DNA of 64,000 bases. Origin: Pseudolabrys sp. Lineage in GTDB: Bacteria > Pseudomonadota > Alphaproteobacteria > Rhizobiales > Xanthobacteraceae. Positions within the stretch are counted from its first letter, which is position 1. Every line of letters begins with the position of its first letter. The stretch covers positions 821 to 64,820 of the forward strand of contig JBFWZV010000013.1 of NCBI GenBank assembly GCA_050184975.1, read 5' to 3'. Below, piece after piece: positions 3,492 to 37,427 of this stretch. A program made the position numbers and the translations under genes. Under the pieces are notes generated by a model, which searched no databases, was not told the DNA's origin, and saw only the letters and a list, made by a program, of their open reading frames with translations.

Positions 3492-4523
3492 ATGGCCCTC
3501 GCCCGCACCCGCCGCAGCGAAGCCGGGATGAATTACTGGCCCGGCTTCGTCGACGCGCTGTCGACGCTGATCCTCGCCATCATTTTCATCCTCACCGTGT
3601 TCGTCGTCGTGCAGTTTTTCCTGCAGCAGGAAGTCGCCGGCAAGGACACCGCGCTCAATCGCCTCAACGCGCAGATCGCGCAGCTGACCGAACTCTTGTC
3701 GCTGGAGCGCACCGGCAAGGTCGATCTCGAGGAGCAGCTGGCGCAACTGCGCGCCGGCCTGTCGGGCGTCGAGGCCGAGCGCGACCGTCTCAAAAGCGAA
3801 CTTGCCGGCGCCGGCGCCGGCGCGAGCGAGGCGCAGGGCCGCATCGGCACACTGACCGAGCAGCTCGAAGGCGAGAAGCGCATCACCGCCCGCGCGCTGG
3901 CGCAGGTCGAGGTGTTGAACCAGCAGATCGCGGCGCTGCGCCGCCAGCTTGCCGCGCTCGAATCCGCGCTTGAGGTCTCCGAGTCGAAGGACAAGGAGTC
4001 GCAGGCTCGCATCGCCGAGCTTGGCCAGCGGCTCAACGTGGCGCTCGCCCAGCGCGTGCAGGAACTGACCAAGTACCGCTCCGATTTCTTCGGCCGGCTG
4101 CGCCAGGTGCTGGCCGACCGGCCTGACATCCGCATCGTCGGCGACCGGTTCGTGCTGCCGTCCGAGCTGTTGTTCGAGACCGGCAAGGCGGAACTCCTGC
4201 CCGCCGCGCGCGCCGAGATCGACAAGATCGCGACGGCGCTTCTGGACATGGCCTCGAAAATCCCGGCCGACATCGCCTGGGTGCTCCGCGTCGACGGCCA
4301 CACCGACGTGCGGCCGACCGGCACCGCGGGCCAGTTCAAGTCGAACTGGGATTTGTCGGCCGCGCGCGCCATCGCGGTCGTGCAATATCTCGCCAGCAAG
4401 GGCATCCCGCCGCAGCGTCTCGTTGCCGCCGGCTTCGGCGAGTTCCAGCCGATCGACACCGGCACGACAGACGAAGCCTACCGGCGCAACCGCCGCATCG
4501 AATTCAAGCTGACCGAGCGGTAG
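3492..4523 (+). CDS. OmpA/MotB-family peptidoglycan-binding protein with coiled coil
   Basis: WPGFVDALSTL MotB-like TM segment, long coiled coil, C-terminal VDGHTD..NWDLSAARA..RRNRRIE. Confidence 0.9.
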   Translation: MALARTRRSEAGMNYWPGFVDALSTLILAIIFILTVFVVVQFFLQQEVAGKDTALNRLNAQIAQLTELLSLERTGKVDLEEQLAQLRAGLSGVEAERDRLKSELAGAGAGASEAQGRIGTLTEQLEGEKRITARALAQVEVLNQQIAALRRQLAALESALEVSESKDKESQARIAELGQRLNVALAQRVQELTKYRSDFFGRLRQVLADRPDIRIVGDRFVLPSELLFETGKAELLPAARAEIDKIATALLDMASKIPADIAWVLRVDGHTDVRPTGTAGQFKSNWDLSAARAIAVVQYLASKGIPPQRLVAAGFGEFQPIDTGTTDEAYRRNRRIEFKLTER

Positions 4524-4571
4524 GGCATGATCCCGAAAAGTGGAAACCGGTTTTCGGACAAGATCATGCCC
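4521..4571 (+). repeat. Palindromic dispersed repeat, copy 2
   Basis: Nearly identical to 3413-3463 (GAAACC vs GAGACC); begins on the upstream TAG stop. Confidence 0.9.
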
Positions 4572-4582
4572 AAAAAAAACAA

Positions 4583-5038
4583 GTGACCTCGCTCGCCTTC
4601 ACGCTGCGCGCCTACACCGACGCCGACGAGGACGCCGCGATCGAACTGTGGCGGCGGACCTGGGCCACGCACTTCCCGCATATCGACTTCAACAGCCGCG
4701 TCGCCTGGTGGCGCGAGCGCTGGAAGCAGGATCTCGTGCCCGTCACCGCGATCATGATCGCCGAATGCGACGGCGCGCTCGCCGGCTTCATGACCATCGA
4801 CGAGACCACCGGCTATCTCGACCAGATCGTGGTGGCGCCGGAACACTGGGGCAAGGGCATTGCGCTCGCGCTGCTCGACGAAGCCAAGCGCCGCGCGCCC
4901 GGCGGCATCGAATTGCTCGTCAACAAGGACAATACCCGCGCCATCAAGTTTTACGAGAAGCACGGCTTCGTCTTCGTCGGCGAGGACAAGAACCCGGTGT
5001 CGGGGATTCCGGTGAATAGGATGAAGTGGAGGCCTTAA
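4583..5038 (+). CDS. GNAT family N-acetyltransferase
   Basis: YLDQIVVAPEHWGKGIALALL and NTRAIKFYEKHGF motifs; GTG start. Confidence 0.9.
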   Translation: MTSLAFTLRAYTDADEDAAIELWRRTWATHFPHIDFNSRVAWWRERWKQDLVPVTAIMIAECDGALAGFMTIDETTGYLDQIVVAPEHWGKGIALALLDEAKRRAPGGIELLVNKDNTRAIKFYEKHGFVFVGEDKNPVSGIPVNRMKWRP

Positions 5039-5062
5039 GACGCTGCCACCATCCCCTCCTTA

Positions 5063-5450
5063 GTCATGGCCGGGCTTGTCCCGGCCATCCCGCTTAGGAA
5101 GGCACAGCGCTTCCTCAAACGATCTCCTCATACAAATCCCGCCACGACGGATTCTGTTGCGCGATGAGCCGCGTCTTGTAGGCGCGCGGCCAGTGCTTCA
5201 TATTCTTCTCGCGCGGGATCGCATCGCGTGACGACGCAAACTCCTCGAAGTGGACCAGCTTGTCGATGTTGTAACGCCGCGTATGTCCCGGCACGATCTT
5301 TTGCTTGTGCTCCTACACACGCCGGACGAGATCGTTCGTCACGCCGACATAGATCGCGCCGCCCGGCCTGCTGGCGAGGATGTAGACGTAGTAGTTGCGC
5401 ATCAGCCGAGTGTCAGGAATCGGGATGGCCGGGACAAGCCCGGCCATGAC
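5063..5450. mobile_element. REP doublet (REPIN-like) carrying a GIY-YIG gene
   Basis: Perfect 30-bp inverted repeat 5063-5092 / 5421-5450 (GTCATGGCCGGGCTTGTCCCGGCCATCCCG); internal landmarks GGCACAG and AATCGGG match the empty doublets at 29792 and 31182. Confidence 0.75.
5115..5402 (-). pseudogene. Small GIY-YIG nuclease family protein with an in-frame TAG at codon 30
   Basis: Manual translation MRNYYVYILASRPGGAIYVGVTNDLVRRV*EHKQKIVPGHTRRYNIDKLVHFEEF...REKNMKHW...NPSWRDLYEEIV; stop at 5313-5315; absent from the ORF track. Confidence 0.88.
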
Positions 5451-5461
5451 CGAATTGAAGC

Positions 5462-5491
5462 CTTGACGCTTGTGACCACGCAAGACTATAT
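5462..5491 (+). promoter_or_regulatory. Sigma70-type promoter CTTGAC-N18-CTATAT
   Basis: CTTGAC 5462-5467 and CTATAT 5486-5491 match the rhizobial RpoD consensus; the same boxes and spacing recur at 34249-34278 with a different spacer. Confidence 0.7.
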
Positions 5492-5607
5492 TCGCATTTA
5501 TATACTTGACAAAAGTACGACTATAATCCTAATTTGAGCCTGCGTGACAGGCCGGTGTCGTCAGTCAGGTAAATAGATGCGTTTCGCCAGAGAAAAGGTG
5601 AAACGCG

Positions 5608-5817
5608 ATGAATCAGAAGAATTACGACGTTGAAATCACTCCTCTGGTGGTCGAGGAGGTGTTTCAGGTATTGGTCCGAAGTGGAATCCAGTCGGAGTTG
5701 ATGGGGGCGGATAGACTACTGGTTGACGAAATGCTTCGTAAGTTTTGTCAGCTTTCCGGGCTTCGGGTGAAGGGCGGCTCAAATGAAACAGGTAAAACAT
5801 CACAAGCTGAAGTCTAA
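5608..5817 (+). CDS. Small hypothetical protein inside IS element 1
   Basis: 69-aa ORF after a hairpin containing AAGGTG; overlaps the 3' end of the minus-strand cargo gene, so it could be a shadow ORF. Confidence 0.4.
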   Translation: MNQKNYDVEITPLVVEEVFQVLVRSGIQSELMGADRLLVDEMLRKFCQLSGLRVKGGSNETGKTSQAEV

Positions 5818-6262
5818 CAAACTCCGTTTTCTCGACAAATTTCCACAGACCGCTTGTCGTTAGCGCCTCTGAGCCAGCAGGATTATGGGACGCCAAAACA
5901 AACACTTCGTCTGGCTCAATTCCAGGCTGTTCTTCGTCACCGTCCTGCCCTAACACATGCCAGTGTATGAACTCATTTCTCGTTTGATCTAGCTGCCTGA
6001 TTAATTTCAAAACGCTTCGCCAGAAGATCTGATATTCATCACCGAATTCGCTCTCAATTAAAGTGTCGATTATTCTGTTGCGAGAGTGAGTGTTTGTTAT
6101 GCGATAAAACACGATGCTTGCCTTTTGCACATCGGCGTCGATTAGGTCTGCGAACTGCAAGCATAGTTGTTGTTCGAGATCAGAGTATGCTTCCAATGCT
6201 GCGGCTCTCGCCAACTGCAACTTTTTAAGTAATTCTGGCGGATCAGATCGAAGGGTATCCAT
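5636..6262 (-). CDS. Passenger protein, putative HEPN-like (RNxxxH) domain
   Basis: 208 aa from the first in-frame ATG (6262); mostly helical with the motif LDQTRNEFIHW; no clear SD. Confidence 0.6.
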   Translation of the reverse strand: MDTLRSDPPELLKKLQLARAAALEAYSDLEQQLCLQFADLIDADVQKASIVFYRITNTHSRNRIIDTLIESEFGDEYQIFWRSVLKLIRQLDQTRNEFIHWHVLGQDGDEEQPGIEPDEVFVLASHNPAGSEALTTSGLWKFVEKTEFVRLQLVMFYLFHLSRPSPEARKADKTYEAFRQPVVYPPPSTPTGFHFGPIPETPPRPPEE

Positions 6263-6410
6263 GGGACAAAAACAACGCTTGTCGGAAACACAAAAGTTGA
6301 TGGGCGCTCTTGTGCGGATGCAGCCAAAGCCGCACGAGGAAATGCGCCTCAAGCCTAAAGCCAAAAAGGCTAAGAGTCCCGCGCGGAAACGCGCTTCCGC
6401 CAAGCGATAA
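6261..6410 (+). CDS. Conserved basic micro-protein (MxPKxHxxM[RK]L motif)
   Basis: MGQKQRLSETQKLMGALVRMQPKPHEEMRLKPKAKK...; motif shared with 32478-32660. Confidence 0.6.
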   Translation: MGQKQRLSETQKLMGALVRMQPKPHEEMRLKPKAKKAKSPARKRASAKR

Positions 6411-6448
6411 ACCGCCTCGCAGTATCCCTTATAAATCGGGGGTTTTGC

Positions 6449-7390
6449 TTAGTGAGTCGGCCGGTACGTCAGGCGCTTGCCTTCGATACCCTTCATTGCA
6501 AGCGCCGTCCGTTCCCCGTCAGTCACGCCGAGACCCGAACGATTGTTGTGGCGGAACTCAAACTCGGTGAGATACCGCTGCAAGTGCTGTTCGCCGCAGA
6601 AGCGATAAGTGCCCTTCATTCCGCGCTTGAAGTTACCAAAGAAATTCTCGACTGCGTTGGTCGTCTGTCCGTCTTTGCCGACATAAAAGCCGCGCTGGTT
6701 CCAGCCATGCTCTACTGTTTTGTGAGCGGCAAACTCGCGACCGACTTGAGTGTAGAGAGGGCTTTCGTCGGTGTGTAATTCGCTGGAGCGGTGAGCGTTA
6801 CGAACCAAAACGTCGCGCACGGTTTCTTTGTTCGCGCGCTGCACATGGAACACGCGAGCGCGGCCAGAGGGCTTCTCGACAAGCGCGACAACGGACGCTT
6901 TCTTGCTGTGGCCCTTACGGTAGGACTTCGCCCGCTTCGACGTGCGGCCATAGTACGTCTCGTCAGCCTGAATGCTGGAGCCTTCGCCACCCATAGGCGA
7001 AGGAGCAAGATCGGTCATCGCTTCACGCAAGCGGTGCATCATGAACCAAGCGGTCTTATAGGTGACGCCGACAAGGCGATGGATTTCGTGGGCAGAGCAG
7101 CCGTTCTTGCCTGAATTGAACAGGTGAGCGGCCATCCACCACTTTGTCAGGGGAACCTTGCTGCGCTCAAAAACTGTGCCGACCGTGACGGTGAACTGGC
7201 CTTTGCATTCGTGGCACCAGTAGAGGCCGGGACGCGCGGACTTGCCTTCGATCTTGCCGATCTTCTCTTGATGGGAGTTGCCGCAGTGAGGACAAATAGG
7301 ACCATCGGGCCAGCGCACCGCCTCAAGGGCTTCGCGGGCCTTGGTTTCGTCCTGAAAGATGGGGTTCTGAAACGTTGCTTTCTTGGCCAT
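6449..7390 (-). CDS. IS1595-family DDE transposase
   Basis: N-terminal Zn ribbon CPHCG..CHEC, ADETYYG, HTDE, TNAVENFFG and GKRLTY; ATG 7390 preceded by AGGGAG. Confidence 0.95.
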   Translation of the reverse strand: MAKKATFQNPIFQDETKAREALEAVRWPDGPICPHCGNSHQEKIGKIEGKSARPGLYWCHECKGQFTVTVGTVFERSKVPLTKWWMAAHLFNSGKNGCSAHEIHRLVGVTYKTAWFMMHRLREAMTDLAPSPMGGEGSSIQADETYYGRTSKRAKSYRKGHSKKASVVALVEKPSGRARVFHVQRANKETVRDVLVRNAHRSSELHTDESPLYTQVGREFAAHKTVEHGWNQRGFYVGKDGQTTNAVENFFGNFKRGMKGTYRFCGEQHLQRYLTEFEFRHNNRSGLGVTDGERTALAMKGIEGKRLTYRPTH

Positions 7391-7463
7391 GTCCGGCACT
7401 CCCTATGACCTGAATCCTAGGGAATGGCCGTACATTTGTCAAGTATATAAATGCGACTATATT

Positions 7464-7901
7464 CCTATCGCTTCATCCACGCGAGGGCGCCGCTCGAGGG
7501 CGTCTCTGGTGGCGGGATGAGGCGCGGTGCCCGCGCGTGACGTTCGCAGCGTCATTCCCGGGCGGTTCCGGACCCCGCCCCTCCGGCACTAGGACCGGGG
7601 CGCGTGGAGCACGCTGACGGAAGGGCTTAAAGCCCTCAACGAAAAGCGCGGCCCGGAACCGAACAGAGCCGCATTGGAGCGCCGAGAGGCGTGCGCGGCT
7701 CGCAGGTTTGTTTGCGCAGGCGCGTAAACTTGCCTGCGGCGCAAGCCGCGCGCCATGTGCCGCAAGGCTCATGGCCCGGACGACCCGAGCGCCCTCCCGG
7801 CGCTCCAGTCCCTCGCACTTCTTTTGAAGCGCGAGCCGCGATCTGGGAGTTCAGGCGTGCCCGCGCCTTTCGAACAACAGGGAGGTTCCCGTGCGCCTTC
7901 C
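7464..7901 (+). ncRNA. Candidate large structured non-coding RNA, copy 1
   Basis: Collinear homology with the reverse complement of 31269-31690; compensatory helices; lies downstream of the reconstructed promoter. Confidence 0.65.
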
Positions 7902-7902
7902 G

Positions 7903-9711
7903 CTACACCGCCTCGAATTGCAGCTTGGCGAGCCGCGCGTAGAGCCCGCCGGCCGCGGTGAGGCTCGCATGCGTGCCCTCCTCGACGATGCGGCCGTGGT
8001 CCATCACCAGAATGCGGTCGCAGGACAGCACCGTCGCGAGCCGGTGCGCGATGACGATGGTGGTGCGCTCTTCCATCAGCCCTTCGAGCGCCGCCTGCAC
8101 CAATGTTTCACTCTCCGCGTCGAGCGAGGAGGTCGCCTCGTCGAGCAGCAGCAGCGGCGCGTCGCGCAGGATGGCGCGGGCGATCGCGATGCGCTGGCGC
8201 TGGCCGCCCGACAGCGTGACGCCGCGCTCGCCGATCTGCGTGTCCATGCCCTCCGGCAATCGCGCAATGAACTCCGTGGCGCGGGCAAGCTCTGCGGCGC
8301 GCTCGATCTCCTCGTCCGCCGCCTCGGGCCGGCCGAAGCGGATATTGTCGCGGGCGCTCGCGGCGAAGATCACGGTGTCCTGCGGCACCAGCGCGATGCG
8401 CTTGCGCAAGGCGGCCGGGTCGGCATTGGCGACCGGAATGCCGTCATAGGCGACGCTGCCGCCGGCGGGATCGTAGAAGCGCAGGATCAGGTGGAAGATC
8501 GTGCTCTTGCCCGCGCCGGAAGGTCCGACCAGCGCGACACGCTCGCCGGGCTTGACGCGAAACGTAATGCCGTCGAGCACGGTGACGTCGGGCCGCGACG
8601 GATAGGAAAAGCGCACGCCGTCGAAGGCGACCTCGCCACGCGCGGGCTCCGGCAGCGGCGTCGGATGCGCCGGCGCGGTGATCGCAGGCTTGACGCGCAA
8701 CAGTTCGAACAGCCGCTCGGCGGCGCCGGACGCCTGGCTGATCTCGCCCCAGACCTGGCTGAGTTCGCCCAGGCCGCCGGCCGCGAACACCGCGTAGAGA
8801 ATGAACTGGCCGAGCCGGCCCGGCGTCATCTCGCCGGACAGCACGTCCTGCGCGCCGACCCACAACACGAGGACGACGCTGGCGAAGACGAGAAAAATCG
8901 CCACCGCGGTCAGCACCGCGCGGGCGAAGGTCGAGCCGCGCGCGGCGCGATAGGCGCTCTCGACCGCGCCGGCAAAGCGGCCGGTCGCAAGCCGCTCGTT
9001 GGTGAAGGCCTGCATGGTGCGCGCCGCGCCGATCAGCTCGGAGGCATAGGCAGACGCTTCGGCCAGCGTATCCTGCGCGAGCCGCGAGCGGCGGCGCACC
9101 GAGCGGCCGAACGCAACCAGCGGCAGCACGATCACCGGAATGGCGCCGAGCACGAACAAAGACAATCGGGGACTTGTGAACACCATCATGCCGGCGCCGC
9201 CGAGGAACAGCAGCAGATTGCGCAGCGCGATCGAGACCGAGGCGCCGACCGCCGACTTGATCTGCGTGGTGTCGGCGGTGAGCCGCGAGATCATCTCGCC
9301 GGTGCGCGCCTCGTCGAAGAAGGCCGGCGACAGCCGCGTCAGATGCGTGAAGACGTCGTAGCGGATGTCGGCGACGATGCGCTCGCCGATGGTGGTGACG
9401 AGGTAGTAGCGCATAGCGCTCGCCGCCGCGAGAACGGCCACCACCGCGATCATCACCGTGAAGTAGCTGTCGATCAGCGCAACGCCTTGCGCCGAGAAGC
9501 CGAAGTCGATCATGCGGCGAACCGCGATCGGCACCACCAGCGTGGTCAGCGCCGCGACGACCAGCGCGACCAGCGCCGCGACGGCGCGGCCCTTGTAGCG
9601 CCCGACGTAAGGCGCGAGCAGCAGCAGCGGCCGCAGCCTTACTTTTCGCCCGCCATCGGCCGAAAGCGGCGTGTCGAGGCCGCCGCGCCCGTCGCTTCTT
9701 GCCGCACTCAT
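7903..9711 (-). CDS. ABCB-type (MsbA-like) ABC exporter, fused TMD-NBD
   Basis: Six-TM N-terminal half, GPSGAGKS Walker A, LSGGQRQ signature, LLLDEATS Walker B; start set at ATG 9711. Confidence 0.93.
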   Translation of the reverse strand: MSAARSDGRGGLDTPLSADGGRKVRLRPLLLLAPYVGRYKGRAVAALVALVVAALTTLVVPIAVRRMIDFGFSAQGVALIDSYFTVMIAVVAVLAAASAMRYYLVTTIGERIVADIRYDVFTHLTRLSPAFFDEARTGEMISRLTADTTQIKSAVGASVSIALRNLLLFLGGAGMMVFTSPRLSLFVLGAIPVIVLPLVAFGRSVRRRSRLAQDTLAEASAYASELIGAARTMQAFTNERLATGRFAGAVESAYRAARGSTFARAVLTAVAIFLVFASVVLVLWVGAQDVLSGEMTPGRLGQFILYAVFAAGGLGELSQVWGEISQASGAAERLFELLRVKPAITAPAHPTPLPEPARGEVAFDGVRFSYPSRPDVTVLDGITFRVKPGERVALVGPSGAGKSTIFHLILRFYDPAGGSVAYDGIPVANADPAALRKRIALVPQDTVIFAASARDNIRFGRPEAADEEIERAAELARATEFIARLPEGMDTQIGERGVTLSGGQRQRIAIARAILRDAPLLLLDEATSSLDAESETLVQAALEGLMEERTTIVIAHRLATVLSCDRILVMDHGRIVEEGTHASLTAAGGLYARLAKLQFEAV

Positions 9712-28945: not shown

Positions 28946-29773
28946 CTACTCCCCGTCCGGCCGCGCGGTGCCGTTGATGTTGGCAAGATACCGCGTCACC
29001 GAAGTGTCGAACACCGCCTTGGCGTCGCGCGGGATGACGCGGTCGTAATAGTGGCCGTAGATCGTCTCGAACGAAAACGGCTGCATCGCGCGCTGGATGC
29101 CGACCACCTCGCGGCCAGACAACGGAATGAAGTTCGGATACGAGCGCATGAACGACACGAACTTGTTGTCGGTCGTGACGCTGAGGATGTCGCCGGCGCA
29201 GACGACGCCCTTGCCGCCCTGACCCGCCGCCCAGTGCAGCACCGTGCCGCCGGGGAAGTGGCCGCCGCAACGCACCAGCGTGACGCCGGGCAACAGCGAG
29301 TGCGTCTCGCCCTCCCAGTGCACGATATTGGTGTCCGGCCGCATCACCCAGTTTTTGTCGGCGGCGTGCATGTAGACCTTGCAGCCGAAGGTGCGCGTCC
29401 ATTCCGCATGCGTGGTGTAGAAATGCGGGTGCGAGATCGCCATCGCCTTGACGCCGCCGAGCGCCTTGATGACCGAGACGGTCGCGTCGTCGAGAAACGA
29501 AATGCAGTCCCACAACACGTTTCCATTCGGCGTCTGGATCAGCAGCGCGCGCTGGCCGATGGCGAATTGCGGCCGCGTGACAAAGCCGATGACGCCCGGT
29601 TCGTACTGGCGGATGCCGTTGACGCGGTCGAGCTTGAGCCGCTCCAGCGTGGTCCAGCCCTGCCCGGTCGGCGGCACGTATTGCCGCTCCTCCTCGCAGA
29701 TCACGCATTGTTTCGGAGGGTTGTCGGACGGCGGATATTGCGTGCCGCAGGCGGTGCAGATGAAGGCTGGCAT
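28946..29773 (-). CDS. MBL-fold metallo-hydrolase with N-terminal Zn ribbon
   Basis: CTACG..CVIC; ISHPHFY; GGHFPG. Confidence 0.85.
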   Translation of the reverse strand: MPAFICTACGTQYPPSDNPPKQCVICEEERQYVPPTGQGWTTLERLKLDRVNGIRQYEPGVIGFVTRPQFAIGQRALLIQTPNGNVLWDCISFLDDATVSVIKALGGVKAMAISHPHFYTTHAEWTRTFGCKVYMHAADKNWVMRPDTNIVHWEGETHSLLPGVTLVRCGGHFPGGTVLHWAAGQGGKGVVCAGDILSVTTDNKFVSFMRSYPNFIPLSGREVVGIQRAMQPFSFETIYGHYYDRVIPRDAKAVFDTSVTRYLANINGTARPDGE

Positions 29774-29791: not shown

Positions 29792-29876
29792 GTCATGGCC
29801 GGATTTATTCCGGCCATCCCGGTCAGGCAGGCACAGTGTCCGCAATCGGGACCACCGGGACAAGCCCGGTGGTGAC
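29792..29876 (+). repeat. Empty 85-bp REP doublet (REPIN-like)
   Basis: GTCATGGCCGG..CCGGCCATCCCG-GTCAGGCAGGCACAG-TGTCCGC-AATCGGGACCACCGGGACAAGCCCGGTGGTGAC. Confidence 0.88.
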
Positions 29877-29881
29877 AAGGT

Positions 29882-31108
29882 TCACGGCCGCAAAATCTCC
29901 GGCGGGTGGCGGACCACGGTCTGGCGGCCGTTCTTGAACACGGCGAGCGGCGCGGCGATCTCGGCGATCGCCTGTTCCGGCGTTTCGGCGTCGATGATGA
30001 CGACGTCGCCGGGGTTGCCGACCGCGAAGCCGTAATTTTTCATATTGAGCAACCGGGCCGAGCGCGTGGTGAGCATGTCGAAGCAGTCGCGCAGTTCCTG
30101 CGGGCGGTCGAGATACTGCAGGTTGGCGTACATGTTGGCCATGCGGATCAGCGAGCAGTCGCCATAGGGCGTCGCCGGGTTGAGCACGTTGTTGGTCGAG
30201 AGCGAGCAGTTGACGCCGTGCTCCAGCAGTCGGTTGGCGTCCGCCACGCCGCGCGGATGGGAATGCGTGCAGTGGCGGCCCATCAGAAACAGGTCGGTCG
30301 CCGGCAGCACGGTGACGCCGATCCCTGAATCCGCCAGTTGCTTCGCCAGCACCGCGAACGGCTCCGGCGGCAATAACGAGAGCTTGGCCATGTGCCCGGC
30401 GACGACGCGGCCGCCGCGCTTGTACTTGTCGGTGAGTTCGCGGACGTAGTGAATGAACATGTCGTCGGCGGTCGGCCCGACGTCGAGATGCATGTCGATG
30501 TCGACGTCGTAGTCGCGGGCGAGTTCGAAAATGCGCTCGATCTGGCCGCGCGGGTCTTTGTCGTAGCGCGGCGCGCCGCCGATCACCGGGGCACCGCGCT
30601 TGAGCGCCTCGACCAGCAGTTCGTCGGTGCCGGGAAACGAGATCAGCCCCTCCTGCGGGAACACGCAGATCTCGACATCGATCGCCCATTTGAGGTCGTC
30701 GATCGCCGCCAGCACGCCGTCGAGCCCGCGCAGGCCGATGCCGGGATCGACCTCAAGCTGGGTGCGCATGCGCGTCGCGCCGTTGACGATGCAGGCCTCG
30801 AGCGTGCGCTTCGCCCGCGCATGCACGTCCTCGACCGTCATGTCTTTCTTGACCGGCGTGACGCCGAACACCGGCGACAGCTTGGCTTTCTCCTGCGGCG
30901 CGCAGCGGTCGATGATGCGCGCCTTGTCGAGATGGATGTGGGTCTCGATCAGGCCCGGACAGGCGAGCTTGCCGTTTGCGTCGTGGATTTTCGTGTTCGT
31001 GCCGGCGTCGATACGCGGTTCGATCGCCGCAATCTTGCCGGCCTTGATGCCGATGTCGGTCGCGCCGTCACGGCCGGGAACGCGCGCGTTGCGAATGAGG
31101 AGGTCCAT
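29882..31108 (-). CDS. Amidohydrolase (cytosine/creatinine deaminase-like)
   Basis: ETHIHLDK metal motif, FPQEG, IDMHLD, AGHMAKL, STNNVLNP. Confidence 0.9.
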   Translation of the reverse strand: MDLLIRNARVPGRDGATDIGIKAGKIAAIEPRIDAGTNTKIHDANGKLACPGLIETHIHLDKARIIDRCAPQEKAKLSPVFGVTPVKKDMTVEDVHARAKRTLEACIVNGATRMRTQLEVDPGIGLRGLDGVLAAIDDLKWAIDVEICVFPQEGLISFPGTDELLVEALKRGAPVIGGAPRYDKDPRGQIERIFELARDYDVDIDMHLDVGPTADDMFIHYVRELTDKYKRGGRVVAGHMAKLSLLPPEPFAVLAKQLADSGIGVTVLPATDLFLMGRHCTHSHPRGVADANRLLEHGVNCSLSTNNVLNPATPYGDCSLIRMANMYANLQYLDRPQELRDCFDMLTTRSARLLNMKNYGFAVGNPGDVVIIDAETPEQAIAEIAAPLAVFKNGRQTVVRHPPEILRP

Positions 31109-31181
31109 CGACGGCAGTCCTTTCAAAGCCCTTCAAAGTCATGGCCGGGAGTTGTTGGCCCGGCCGACGATACTTTTGCAT

Positions 31182-31266
31182 GTCATCACCGGGCTTGTCC
31201 CGGTGATCCCGATTTCTGGAACTGTGCCTCCCTAAGCGGGATGGCCGGAACAAGTCCGGCCATGAC
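31182..31266 (-). repeat. Empty 85-bp REP doublet, inverted relative to 29792-29876
   Basis: Reverse complement: GTCATGGCCGGACTTGTTCCGGCCATCCCG-CTTAGGGAGGCACAG-TTCCAGA-AATCGGGATCACCGGGACAAGCCCGGTGATGAC; a degenerate REP also lies at 31138-31168. Confidence 0.88.
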
Positions 31267-35419: not shown

Positions 35420-35504
35420 CGTCATGGCCGGGCTTGTCCCGGCCATCCACGTCTTGCCTACCGATAAGTAAGACGTGGATGCCCGGCATAAAGCCGGGCA
35501 TGAC
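35420..35504. repeat. REP doublet of a second linker type (CCACGTCTT...AAGACGTGG)
   Basis: CGTCATGGCCGGGCTTGTCCCGGCCATCCACGTCTT-N15-AAGACGTGGATGCCCGGCATAAAGCCGGGCATGAC, downstream of prpE. Confidence 0.9.
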
Positions 35505-35510
35505 AGAGCA

Positions 35511-37427
35511 TCATGCCCCCACCCCCTTCGTTTTCAGCGCCGCCCCGATCTCGTCCAGCACCTTGGGGTCCTCGATGGTGGCCGGCATGGTCCAGGCCTC
35601 GCCGTCGGCGATCTTCTTGATGGTGCCGCGCAGGATCTTGCCTGAGCGCGTTTTCGGCAGACGCGGCACGGTGATGGCGAGCTTGAACGCCGCGACCGGG
35701 CCGATCTTGTCGCGCACAAGCTGAACGATTTCCTTCTCGATCTGATCGGGCGCTTTCTTGACGCCGGCCTTCAAGACGATAAAGCCGCAGGGCACCTCGC
35801 CTTTCATCGCGTCGGCGATGCCGAGCACGGCGCATTCGGCGACGTCGGGGTGCGCGGCCAGCACCTCCTCCATGCCGCCGGTCGAGAGCCGGTGCCCCGC
35901 GACATTGATGATGTCGTCGGTGCGGCCCATCACCCACACGTAACCGTCGTCGTCGATGTAGCCGGCGTCGGCGGTTTTGTAGAAACCGGGGAACTCGGCG
36001 AGATAGGCCTCCTTGAAGCGGTCGTCCTGCTGCCACAGCGTCGGGAAGTTCGACGGCGGCAGCGGCAGCTTGACGACGATGGAGCCGACGGTGCCGCGCG
36101 GCACGGGTTTCGCCGCCTCGTCCACCACCTGCACGTCATAGCCCGGCATCGGCACGGTGGCGGAGCCGTGCTTCACCGGCAACTGGCCGAGGCCGACCGG
36201 ATTGCCGGCGATGCACCAGCCGGTCTCGGTCTGCCACCAGTGGTCGATCACCGGAACCTTCAGCACTTTCTCCGCCCAGTCCACCGTCGGCGGGTCGGCG
36301 CGCTCGCCGGCCAGAAACAGCGTGCGGAACTTGCTGAGGTCGTATTTCTTCAACTGCTCGGCGTTGGGGTCTTCCTTCTTGATGGCGCGGAAGGCGGTCG
36401 GCGCGGTGAACAGCGCGACGGCCTTGTGCTCCGAGATGACGCGCCAGAACGCGCCGGCGTCCGGCGTGCCGACCGGCTTGCCCTCGTACATGATGGACGT
36501 GCAGCCGTGCAGCAGCGGCGCATAGACGATGTAGGAGTGGCCGACCACCCAGCCGATGTCGGAGGCGGTCCACCACACCTCGCCGGGCCTGATGCCGTAG
36601 AGGTTCGCCATCGACCATTTCAGCGCGACCATGTGGCCGCCATTGTCGCGGACGACGCCCTTGGGGATGCCGGTGGTGCCGGAGGTGTAGAGGATATAGA
36701 GCGGGTCGGTGGCGGCGACGGTGACACAGTCGGCGCTCTTGCCGGCGCGCATCGCGGCGGCGCGCAAGCTGGCCCAGTCGTGGTCGCGGCCGCCGAACAG
36801 CTTGGCGTTGTTCTGCGGGCGCTGGAACAGGATGACGCCTTCCGGCTTCGACTTGGCGAGGTCGATCGCGGTGTCCAGGAGCGGCTTGTATTCGACGATG
36901 CGGCCCGGCTCGATGCCGCAGCTCGCAGTGAGGATCAGCTTGGGCTTGGCGTCGTCGATGCGCGTCGCCAGCTCCTTGGCCGCGAAGCCGCCGAACACCA
37001 CGGAGTGGATGGCGCCGAGCCGCGCGCAGGCGAGCATGCCGAACACCGCCTCCGGGATCATCGGCATGTAGATGATGACGCGGTCGCCTTTGGTGACGCC
37101 GTGATCCTTGAGGATGGCGGCGAGCGTCTTCACCTCGTCGAGCGTCTCTTTGTAGGTGTAGGTGCGTTTGGTGTTGGTGACGGGCGAGTCGTAGATGAAC
37201 GCCGCCTGCTCGGCGCGGCCGGCGGCGACGTGGCGGTCGAGCGCGTTGTAGCAGGTGTTGCACTCAGCCCCGGCGAACCAGCGGCCATAGACGCCTTGCT
37301 TTGGGTCGAACACCTTGTCGGCCGGCTTGACCCAGTCAATGTCTTTCGCGGCCTCGGCCCAGAACCCTTCCGGATCCTTCTGCCAGCGCGCATAGACCTC
37401 GTGGTAGCGGCTCGTGCGGGCGTCCAT
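35511..37427 (-). CDS. prpE: Propionyl-CoA synthetase
   Basis: YTSGTTGIPKG, DHWWQTETG, GRTDD..NVAGHRLST, LPKTRSGKILR; start ATG 37427. Confidence 0.9.
   Translation of the reverse strand: MDARTSRYHEVYARWQKDPEGFWAEAAKDIDWVKPADKVFDPKQGVYGRWFAGAECNTCYNALDRHVAAGRAEQAAFIYDSPVTNTKRTYTYKETLDEVKTLAAILKDHGVTKGDRVIIYMPMIPEAVFGMLACARLGAIHSVVFGGFAAKELATRIDDAKPKLILTASCGIEPGRIVEYKPLLDTAIDLAKSKPEGVILFQRPQNNAKLFGGRDHDWASLRAAAMRAGKSADCVTVAATDPLYILYTSGTTGIPKGVVRDNGGHMVALKWSMANLYGIRPGEVWWTASDIGWVVGHSYIVYAPLLHGCTSIMYEGKPVGTPDAGAFWRVISEHKAVALFTAPTAFRAIKKEDPNAEQLKKYDLSKFRTLFLAGERADPPTVDWAEKVLKVPVIDHWWQTETGWCIAGNPVGLGQLPVKHGSATVPMPGYDVQVVDEAAKPVPRGTVGSIVVKLPLPPSNFPTLWQQDDRFKEAYLAEFPGFYKTADAGYIDDDGYVWVMGRTDDIINVAGHRLSTGGMEEVLAAHPDVAECAVLGIADAMKGEVPCGFIVLKAGVKKAPDQIEKEIVQLVRDKIGPVAAFKLAITVPRLPKTRSGKILRGTIKKIADGEAWTMPATIEDPKVLDEIGAALKTKGVGA

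Follow-up and report, generated by a model that had tools for sequence, protein, structure and literature searches.

The Ssn family (CDD cd10448) was defined by Chenal et al. (Nat Commun 2025; PMC11893778), and its Neisseria meningitidis member SsnA is a single-domain GIY-YIG protein of 94 aa. The repeat of SsnA is NTS (CGTCATTCCCGCGMAVGCGGGAATCYRG), which is dRS3 in oriented form; the protein binds it exclusively as ssDNA and cleaves upstream of it, at a distance of a few nucleotides. The GTC trinucleotide before the palindrome is most important for cleavage and the C directly after the palindrome is most important for binding. The SsnA residues that were mutated are Y6, Y17 and E64, and transformation phenotypes have been published for the N. 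meningitidis protein. At least one repeat lies near 71% of the Ssn homologue genes and 42% have repeats on both sides, and four homologues were found to cleave the repeats that belong to them, with limited cross-reactivity; homology to SsnA was judged in that paper at E<1e-10. The NTS-ssnA-NTS arrangement was described in the same paper as insertion-sequence-like, a parallel was drawn to the RAYT/REP pairs, and domestication together with repeat expansion was suggested (PMC11893778).

CGTC-tagged REPs, catalogued by Di Nocera et al. in 2013, favour gene-proximal intergenic sites and 'apparently lack a dedicated transposase' (PMC3733652), a point which the preliminary description of the DNA studied here had stated correctly. 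The name Di Nocera is absent from the text of the 2025 Ssn paper (PMC11893778). Judged by the locus described below, the 2013 catalogue, in which the REPs have no dedicated enzyme, and the 2025 Ssn paper concern the same objects.

The window, i.e. the whole analysed stretch of 64,000 nucleotides, belongs to contig C13 of a host genome of 3.5 Mb in 125 contigs (G000). The preliminary description had put forward the link between a GIY-YIG gene and REPs at positions 5063-5450 as a new candidate; this link was already in print, and an 'undescribed' pairing is ruled out by Chenal et al. 2025 (PMC11893778). With the central idea essentially published, the locus is probably a decayed member of the known Ssn/SRM system. 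What the locus and its relatives add is the explicit identity of the Ssn repeats with the CGTC REP superfamily, REP classes beyond the published SRM pattern, gene-less doublets with the frame of the cassette, co-variation of nuclease clade and REP class inside one and the same genome, units that end at the REP heads, and insertion hot spots.

The cassette at 5063-5450 and its nuclease gene

The 388-bp cassette (5063-5450) consists of a minus-strand GIY-YIG gene enclosed by two inverted REP hairpins whose heads point outward. Both REPs are 30 nt long and are perfect reverse complements of each other (30/30). The left REP (5063-5092, plus strand) is composed of the GTC head (5063-5065), a 9-bp stem ATGGCCGGG, the loop CTTGT, the returning stem CCCGGCCAT and the tail CCCG, and the right REP (5421-5450, minus strand) is its exact inverted copy. 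With the preceding base included the heads read AGTC and GGTC; the 9-bp stem starts with AT, the loop has 5 nt and the tail is CCCG. On the inner side of the left REP follows the tail extension CTTAGGAAGGCACAG (5093-5107, plus strand), which is common to the empty doublets and to the cassettes of relatives and which includes the GGCACAG motif (5101-5107, plus strand). Before the right REP, the inner linker TGTCAGG (5411-5417) leads into AATCGGG (5418-5424, the tail of the right REP), and 12 of the 14 bases of this plus-strand stretch (5411-5424) equal TGTCCGCAATCGGG of the gene-less doublet at 29792-29876. The plan REP-N8-GGCACAG-7 nt-AATCGGG-REP, which had been reported for three doublets with the gene inside this one, proved correct in detail when the coordinates were re-read. 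The gene occupies the exact centre of the doublet frame: without positions 5108-5410 (303 nt) the cassette would measure exactly 85 bp, the length of both empty doublets, and the lengths are compatible with a deletion path through AG microhomologies.

The Ssn-like single-domain pseudogene (5115-5402, minus strand) extends from an ATG at 5402 down to a TGA at 5117-5115 and comprises 95 codons and the stop codon. Apart from the in-frame TAG at 5313-5315 (codon 30, occupied by Y, H, F, R or W in relatives) no defect is visible; the earlier reading that the TAG breaks the gene was thus borne out, as far as the assembled sequence can be trusted. Pfam PF01541 (GIY-YIG) matches residues 3-74 of the product with E=5e-15. 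Residues Y7, Y18, R28, H32, E65 and N84 are conserved in the pseudogene, and across 40 homologues Y7, Y18 and E65 are invariant or nearly so; these three align with Y6, Y17 and E64 of SsnA, a putative mapping with an offset of +1. The AF2 model of the product shows a single GIY-YIG domain (pLDDT 94), with UPF0213 1zg2, Slx1 and the N-terminal domain of UvrC as the closest folds. UPF0213 (1zg2, 1ywl) and the GIY-YIG domains of Slx1 are the nearest relatives in sequence and fold, yet they represent separate subfamilies. Slx1 differs by a RING domain and its partner Slx4; for UPF0213 proteins no function is known. A homing endonuclease of the I-TevI type was also considered and rejected. Such enzymes combine GIY-YIG with a separate DNA-binding domain and occur in introns or free-standing in phages, whereas the product is one single domain of 95 aa and reached only 17.6 bits with TIGR01453 against a cut-off of 56.

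Size (95 codons) and the single domain (PF01541, residues 3-74) agree with the Ssn family, as do the flanking inverted hairpins with GTC before and C after the palindrome; the reading frame, interrupted at codon 30, does not. The homologue L076 is 51% identical to the pseudogene product (E=1e-38), and its flanks match the published NTS exactly. Placed through L076 and not through SsnA itself, the cassette is probably a decayed one of the NTS-ssnA-NTS type, an Ssn gene between its cognate CGTC-type REPs. Further likenesses to Ssn/NTS are the length of about 94-95 aa, the HGTC heads and AT-starting palindromes of the repeats on both sides, the dispersal of the same repeats in the genome and the co-variation of nuclease and repeat. 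The differences are that the copy in the window is a pseudogene, that its REPs, with GGCCGGG-CTTGT stems and a CCCG tail, lie off the SRM pattern, that the host is of a free-living, Hyphomicrobiales-like type with only about 40 REPs and not hundreds, and that 85-bp gene-less doublets with the exact cassette frame are documented in its genome.

The published SRM pattern, HGTCWYN(0-2)YYVSBRHN(0-5)WNVSBRGN(0-2)RNCYNB, is a search pattern and not a definition of the family. It matches neither REP of the cassette; head and tail fit and the core of the stem deviates. Likewise, none of the 73 REPs of classes A, B, B2, C, F and G flanking 124 loci matched it. What this reveals is an overly narrow pattern, not a lack of relationship among the repeats. 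Since whole REP classes escape it, counts of the Ssn/REP system in Alphaproteobacteria are probably too low.

Association of REPs with nuclease genes across genomes

Homologues were collected from 40 related genomes, 80 public loci of many phyla and 20 further paralogues. For flanking repeats, the two 120-nt flanks were searched for their best inverted match, which had to reach at least 17/20, and shifted positions at the same loci served as the control. Flanking inverted repeats were present at 67 of 102 homologous loci and at only one of 742 control positions, a strong enrichment which bears on the question, raised in the preliminary description, of how often such genes lie between inverted REPs. 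Both arms were identical over 20 nt in about 29 of the 102 loci. When canonical head-out REPs were searched at 124 loci with a structure-based detector, 63 loci had them on both sides and 30 on one side; the detector missed one nuclease clade with long nested repeat loops (e.g. L072, L086), the arms of which are still visible by the inverted-repeat scan.

The logo of the REPs around the nuclease loci has C or T before GTC in 92%, a stem starting with AT in 89%, and a tail with C (96%), C (80%) and A (83%). This is the description given for CGTC-tagged REPs in 2013 (PMC3733652), which identifies both as the same objects. The repeats share with that catalogue the (C/T)GTC head, the AT-starting stem of 8-9 bp, the loop of 4-5 nt, the short unpaired tail, the heterodimeric doublets and the predominance in Alphaproteobacteria; the cassette at 5063-5450 was rated as agreeing in head, stem, loop and dimeric arrangement. 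They differ in that the heads of the host genome read AGTC, GGTC or TGTC and not strictly CGTC, and the class A tail is CCCG instead of CCA, and the 2013 catalogue came without an enzyme.

The arrangement also resembles REPtrons, i.e. REPIN-RAYT, and IS200/IS605 elements: a gene is bracketed by inverted REPs, gene-less doublets are dispersed, hairpins are recognised as ssDNA, and vertical inheritance goes along with purifying selection. Here, in contrast, the enzyme is a hydrolytic GIY-YIG nuclease and not an HUH-Y1 transposase, and the heads are GTC and not GTAG. Membership among the REPtrons was rejected on the same grounds, and the Y1/RAYT transposase domain (PF01797, Y1_Tnp) had no match anywhere in the host genome.

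When REP class was mapped on the tree of 124 proteins, 12 label changes were counted, compared with 40-50 (mean 45) in 300 shuffles. The REP class thus tracks the nuclease clade, in line with the co-phylogeny that had been proposed as a check. The pseudogene at 5115-5402 clades with L031, L003, L002, L032 and L035, all of which are flanked by the same CCCG-tail REP. In G015, G018, G009 and G016 several nuclease clades are present, every clade with its own REP class; because single genomes carry several such pairs, the REP follows the nuclease and not the host.

Alignments between non-syntenic cassettes are limited to about -48 to +39 around the gene, which corresponds to the stretch from REP head to REP head. 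Together with the enrichment of flanking repeats across phyla, this agrees with the earlier view that gene and REPs form one unit, and a 'hypothetical GIY-YIG' gene and its flanking hairpins are better annotated as such. In non-syntenic pairs (L005/L122, L115/L122, L008/L122 and others) the REP arms are 97-100% identical and the genes only 73-78%. Arm identity so far above gene identity suggests, as judged from these alignments, that the arms are strongly constrained or become homogenised. Many cassettes are inherited vertically at syntenic sites, and the dN/dS of syntenic orthologues is 0.03-0.12; the intact Ssn-like protein is, by this measure, under strong purifying selection. Within the genus the gene is distributed patchily, may be present in multiple copies and is often disrupted or only a fragment. 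At locus L117 (G009 C1:3817620-3818617) two class B cassettes follow one another in tandem, each with its own REP pair; one is intact, the other is split by frameshifts.

Counted by genome, the association is less uniform. Seven genus genomes contain 11-19 class A REPs each, and the clade A gene is present in only three of the seven; in G008 it is a 34-residue fragment. Compared with its absence from all 18 genomes poor in class A REPs, this distribution is weakly significant (hypergeometric p ~0.015). Co-occurrence of class B REPs with the clade B gene was not evident across the related genomes. G014, G016 and G022 hold 109, 77 and 56 class B REPs, all without clade B genes, and several genomes without any cassette-type gene still have 15-38. 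G007 and G021, two genus genomes without a hit to the nuclease family, have almost no class B REPs. The expectation that REP-rich genomes should carry the nuclease therefore failed in part: many lack the cognate clade, whereas G007 and G021, with no nuclease hit and hardly any REPs, conform to it.

Gene-less doublets and occupancy of orthologous sites

By tblastn, the host genome contains one GIY-YIG gene of the 5115-5402 type, the broken copy; a second gene of this type was not found there, and there is no visible replacement. About 16 doublets of the host genome are now orphans, because the only copy of the gene carries the nonsense codon. Judged from the genome sequence, the Ssn/REP system is inactive in this host, with its sole gene dead and its doublets orphaned.

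Approximately seven of the doublets belong to class A (CCCG-tail) and nine to the sister class B (CCACGT-tail). Two class A doublets of 85 bp lie in the window, a heterodimer at 29792-29876 (plus strand) with the stems ATGGCCGGA and ACCACCGGG, and one in inverted orientation at 31182-31266 (minus strand), of the same REP class as the cassette. Both have the cassette frame REP-N8-GGCACAG-7 nt-AATCGGG-REP without the gene. A class B doublet of 84 bp is located at 35421-35504. The REP stems of the host genome differ between copies through compensatory changes. Doublets and cassettes alike are often heterodimers of two stem variants; the empty doublets of the host genome are all heterodimers, and the arms of the cassette at 5063-5450 are identical. 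The architecture of the doublets mirrors that of gene-bearing cassettes, asymmetric doublets resembling the L003 type and symmetric ones the L032/L035 type, which agrees with the earlier proposal that empty doublets are cassettes without their gene.

Two class A doublets on contig C2 of the host genome (C2:14995-15125 and C2:17932-18062) have an extra hairpin of about 30 nt inside the loop of one REP, and long nested loops likewise occur in some class F REPs and in L094. The tips of REP hairpins seem to be insertion targets. Position 2157 of contig C114 is the only place where the same genome, which has no cognate nuclease gene, matches the Neisseria NTS exactly (CGTCATTCCCGCGCAGGCGGGAATCCAG).

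The occupancy of orthologous sites varies between genomes. The sites of the cassettes L002/L003 (G010/G015) and L005/L008 (G024/G005) are present in the host genome without gene or REP, and altogether 10 of 11 host sites orthologous to cassettes of relatives are devoid of any REP. Global pairwise alignments over indels of about 400 bp were messy, and junctions were readable only at the L002/L003 and L005/L008 empty sites, where neither a target duplication nor a common target sequence was seen. Window positions 5040-7911, comprising the cassette and the adjacent IS1595-family element, are missing between the same flanking genes in G001. After the GNAT gene (4583-5038) the cassette is present in the host genome and a class F doublet in G018; most other genomes have nothing there. 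Immediately upstream of the gene at 28948-29773 a class A doublet is found in the host genome, a class B nuclease cassette in G020, a class F doublet in G018, a solo REP in G016 and nothing in G002 and G021. As different elements appear at the same sites, doublets and cassettes arrive independently at gene-proximal sites of the same kind.

The gene next to the doublet 35421-35504 has a class B GIY-YIG cassette beside it in G020 and G009. The elements stand 12 nt (host genome), 75 nt (G020) and 50 nt (G009) away from this gene and in differing orientations. A filled and an empty orthologue with identical outer junctions were not found among the related genomes.

The amidohydrolase gene at 29882-31126 (minus strand) is bracketed by the class A doublets 29792-29876 and 31182-31266, and its homologues in G024 and G018 have non-syntenic flanks. 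The segment 29774-35516, between the gene 28948-29773 and the gene starting near 35517, is a REP-bounded variable segment. In its place G020 carries one class B nuclease cassette; G016 and G002 have different short inserts there.

Possible mobilisation of the units and alternative explanations

Homologues have been shown to recognise their own hairpin as ssDNA and to cut a few nucleotides 5' of the head (PMC11893778), and the Ssn nuclease of this cassette type would be expected to do the same. With the heads pointing outward, the two cut sites would lie on opposite strands, just beyond either end of a cassette or doublet, so the nuclease would be well placed to release or copy the unit. These predicted cut sites coincide with the unit boundaries between non-syntenic copies. 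Release or copying may take place while the region is in single-stranded form or extrudes a cruciform, with joining left to host repair, and the doublets may be non-autonomous relatives, similar to MITEs or REPINs. A hydrolytic nuclease cannot join DNA alone, and to our knowledge no strand-transfer activity is known for Ssn-type GIY-YIG nucleases. Insertion events that could be dated or seen within a population amounted to zero in the genomes compared. We therefore propose a mobilising role of the nuclease only tentatively, as a possibility that falls somewhat short of even chances. The cleavage assay suggested in the preliminary description has been carried out on homologues, which bind and cut their repeats (PMC11893778); the RAYT-like mobilising role assigned there to the nuclease stays a conjecture, and REP-rich genomes without the cognate clade speak against it.

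A wider and slightly more doubtful proposal is that Ssn nucleases are the missing mobilising enzymes of the whole CGTC/TGTC-tagged REP superfamily, acting on cassettes and, in trans, on doublets. If true, a hydrolytic nuclease would drive a second system of the REPIN/RAYT kind, with several orthogonal nuclease/REP pairs side by side in one genome. The comparison of filled and empty sites in the window and the matched nuclease/REP pairs within one genus make the spreading of repeats by the nuclease testable.

Alternatively, the nuclease could serve a domesticated host function: as has been suggested for Neisseria, Ssn and its dispersed hairpins would restrict ssDNA or control recombination. The REPs next to the gene would then be sites of binding, or relics, and some other process would account for the spread or persistence of the doublets. 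The transformation phenotypes of N. meningitidis (PMC11893778) and the persistence of REPs in genomes without the cognate gene speak for such a function, and the low dN/dS and long vertical retention at syntenic sites fit it, but they fit a selfish element equally. We nevertheless consider domestication rather unlikely, since within one genus the gene has a scattered distribution, occurs in several copies and is frequently interrupted or reduced to fragments, orthologous sites differ by the presence or absence of an entire cassette, the similarity of non-syntenic copies is confined to the unit from REP to REP, one genome may hold several orthogonal nuclease/REP pairs, and in the host genome the gene is dead without visible replacement.

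It is improbable that the REP doublets spread independently and that the GIY-YIG gene, as a homing-type selfish gene, inserted at the centre of doublets which it recognised. The exactly central position of the gene in the doublet frame would be explained in this way, other small hairpins are inserted in REP loops on contig C2 of the host genome, and an empty class B doublet lies there beside the gene at which G020 and G009 have filled cassettes. These three elements, however, stand at different distances from that gene (see above), so that no filled and empty orthologues share identical outer junctions; nearly all host sites orthologous to cassettes of relatives are without REP, and the arms at 5063-5450 are identical whereas all empty host doublets are heterodimers. 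The explanation that REPs are common terminator-like hairpins which pile up beside any short gene by coincidence draws on their preference for gene-proximal intergenic sites (PMC3733652), and it is effectively refuted by the enrichment over shifted controls, by the tracking of nuclease clade by REP class and by the binding and cleavage demonstrated for homologues (PMC11893778).

Two further elements lie close to the cassette, which after the rival accounts have been weighed we continue to regard as probably a decayed Ssn cassette. An IS1595-family insertion sequence occupies window positions 5484-7464, bounded by 41-nt terminal inverted repeats (5484-5524 and 7424-7464) and starting 34 nt from the head of the right REP. 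It contains a transposase gene (6449-7399, minus strand; PF12762, PF12760) and an ORF of 255 aa which could not be annotated (5636-6403, minus strand), and its GC content is 45-58% compared with about 65% around it. Between two genes at 4519-4577 there is a palindromic repeat of about 60 nt, GGGCATGATCCCGAAAAGTGGAAACCGGTTTTCGGACAAGATCATGCCC, for which Rfam gave sub-threshold hits only, to pieces of the Brucella sRNAs CI408 and CI27. Many copies of this repeat, with 90-98% identity, are found in nearly every genome of the genus.
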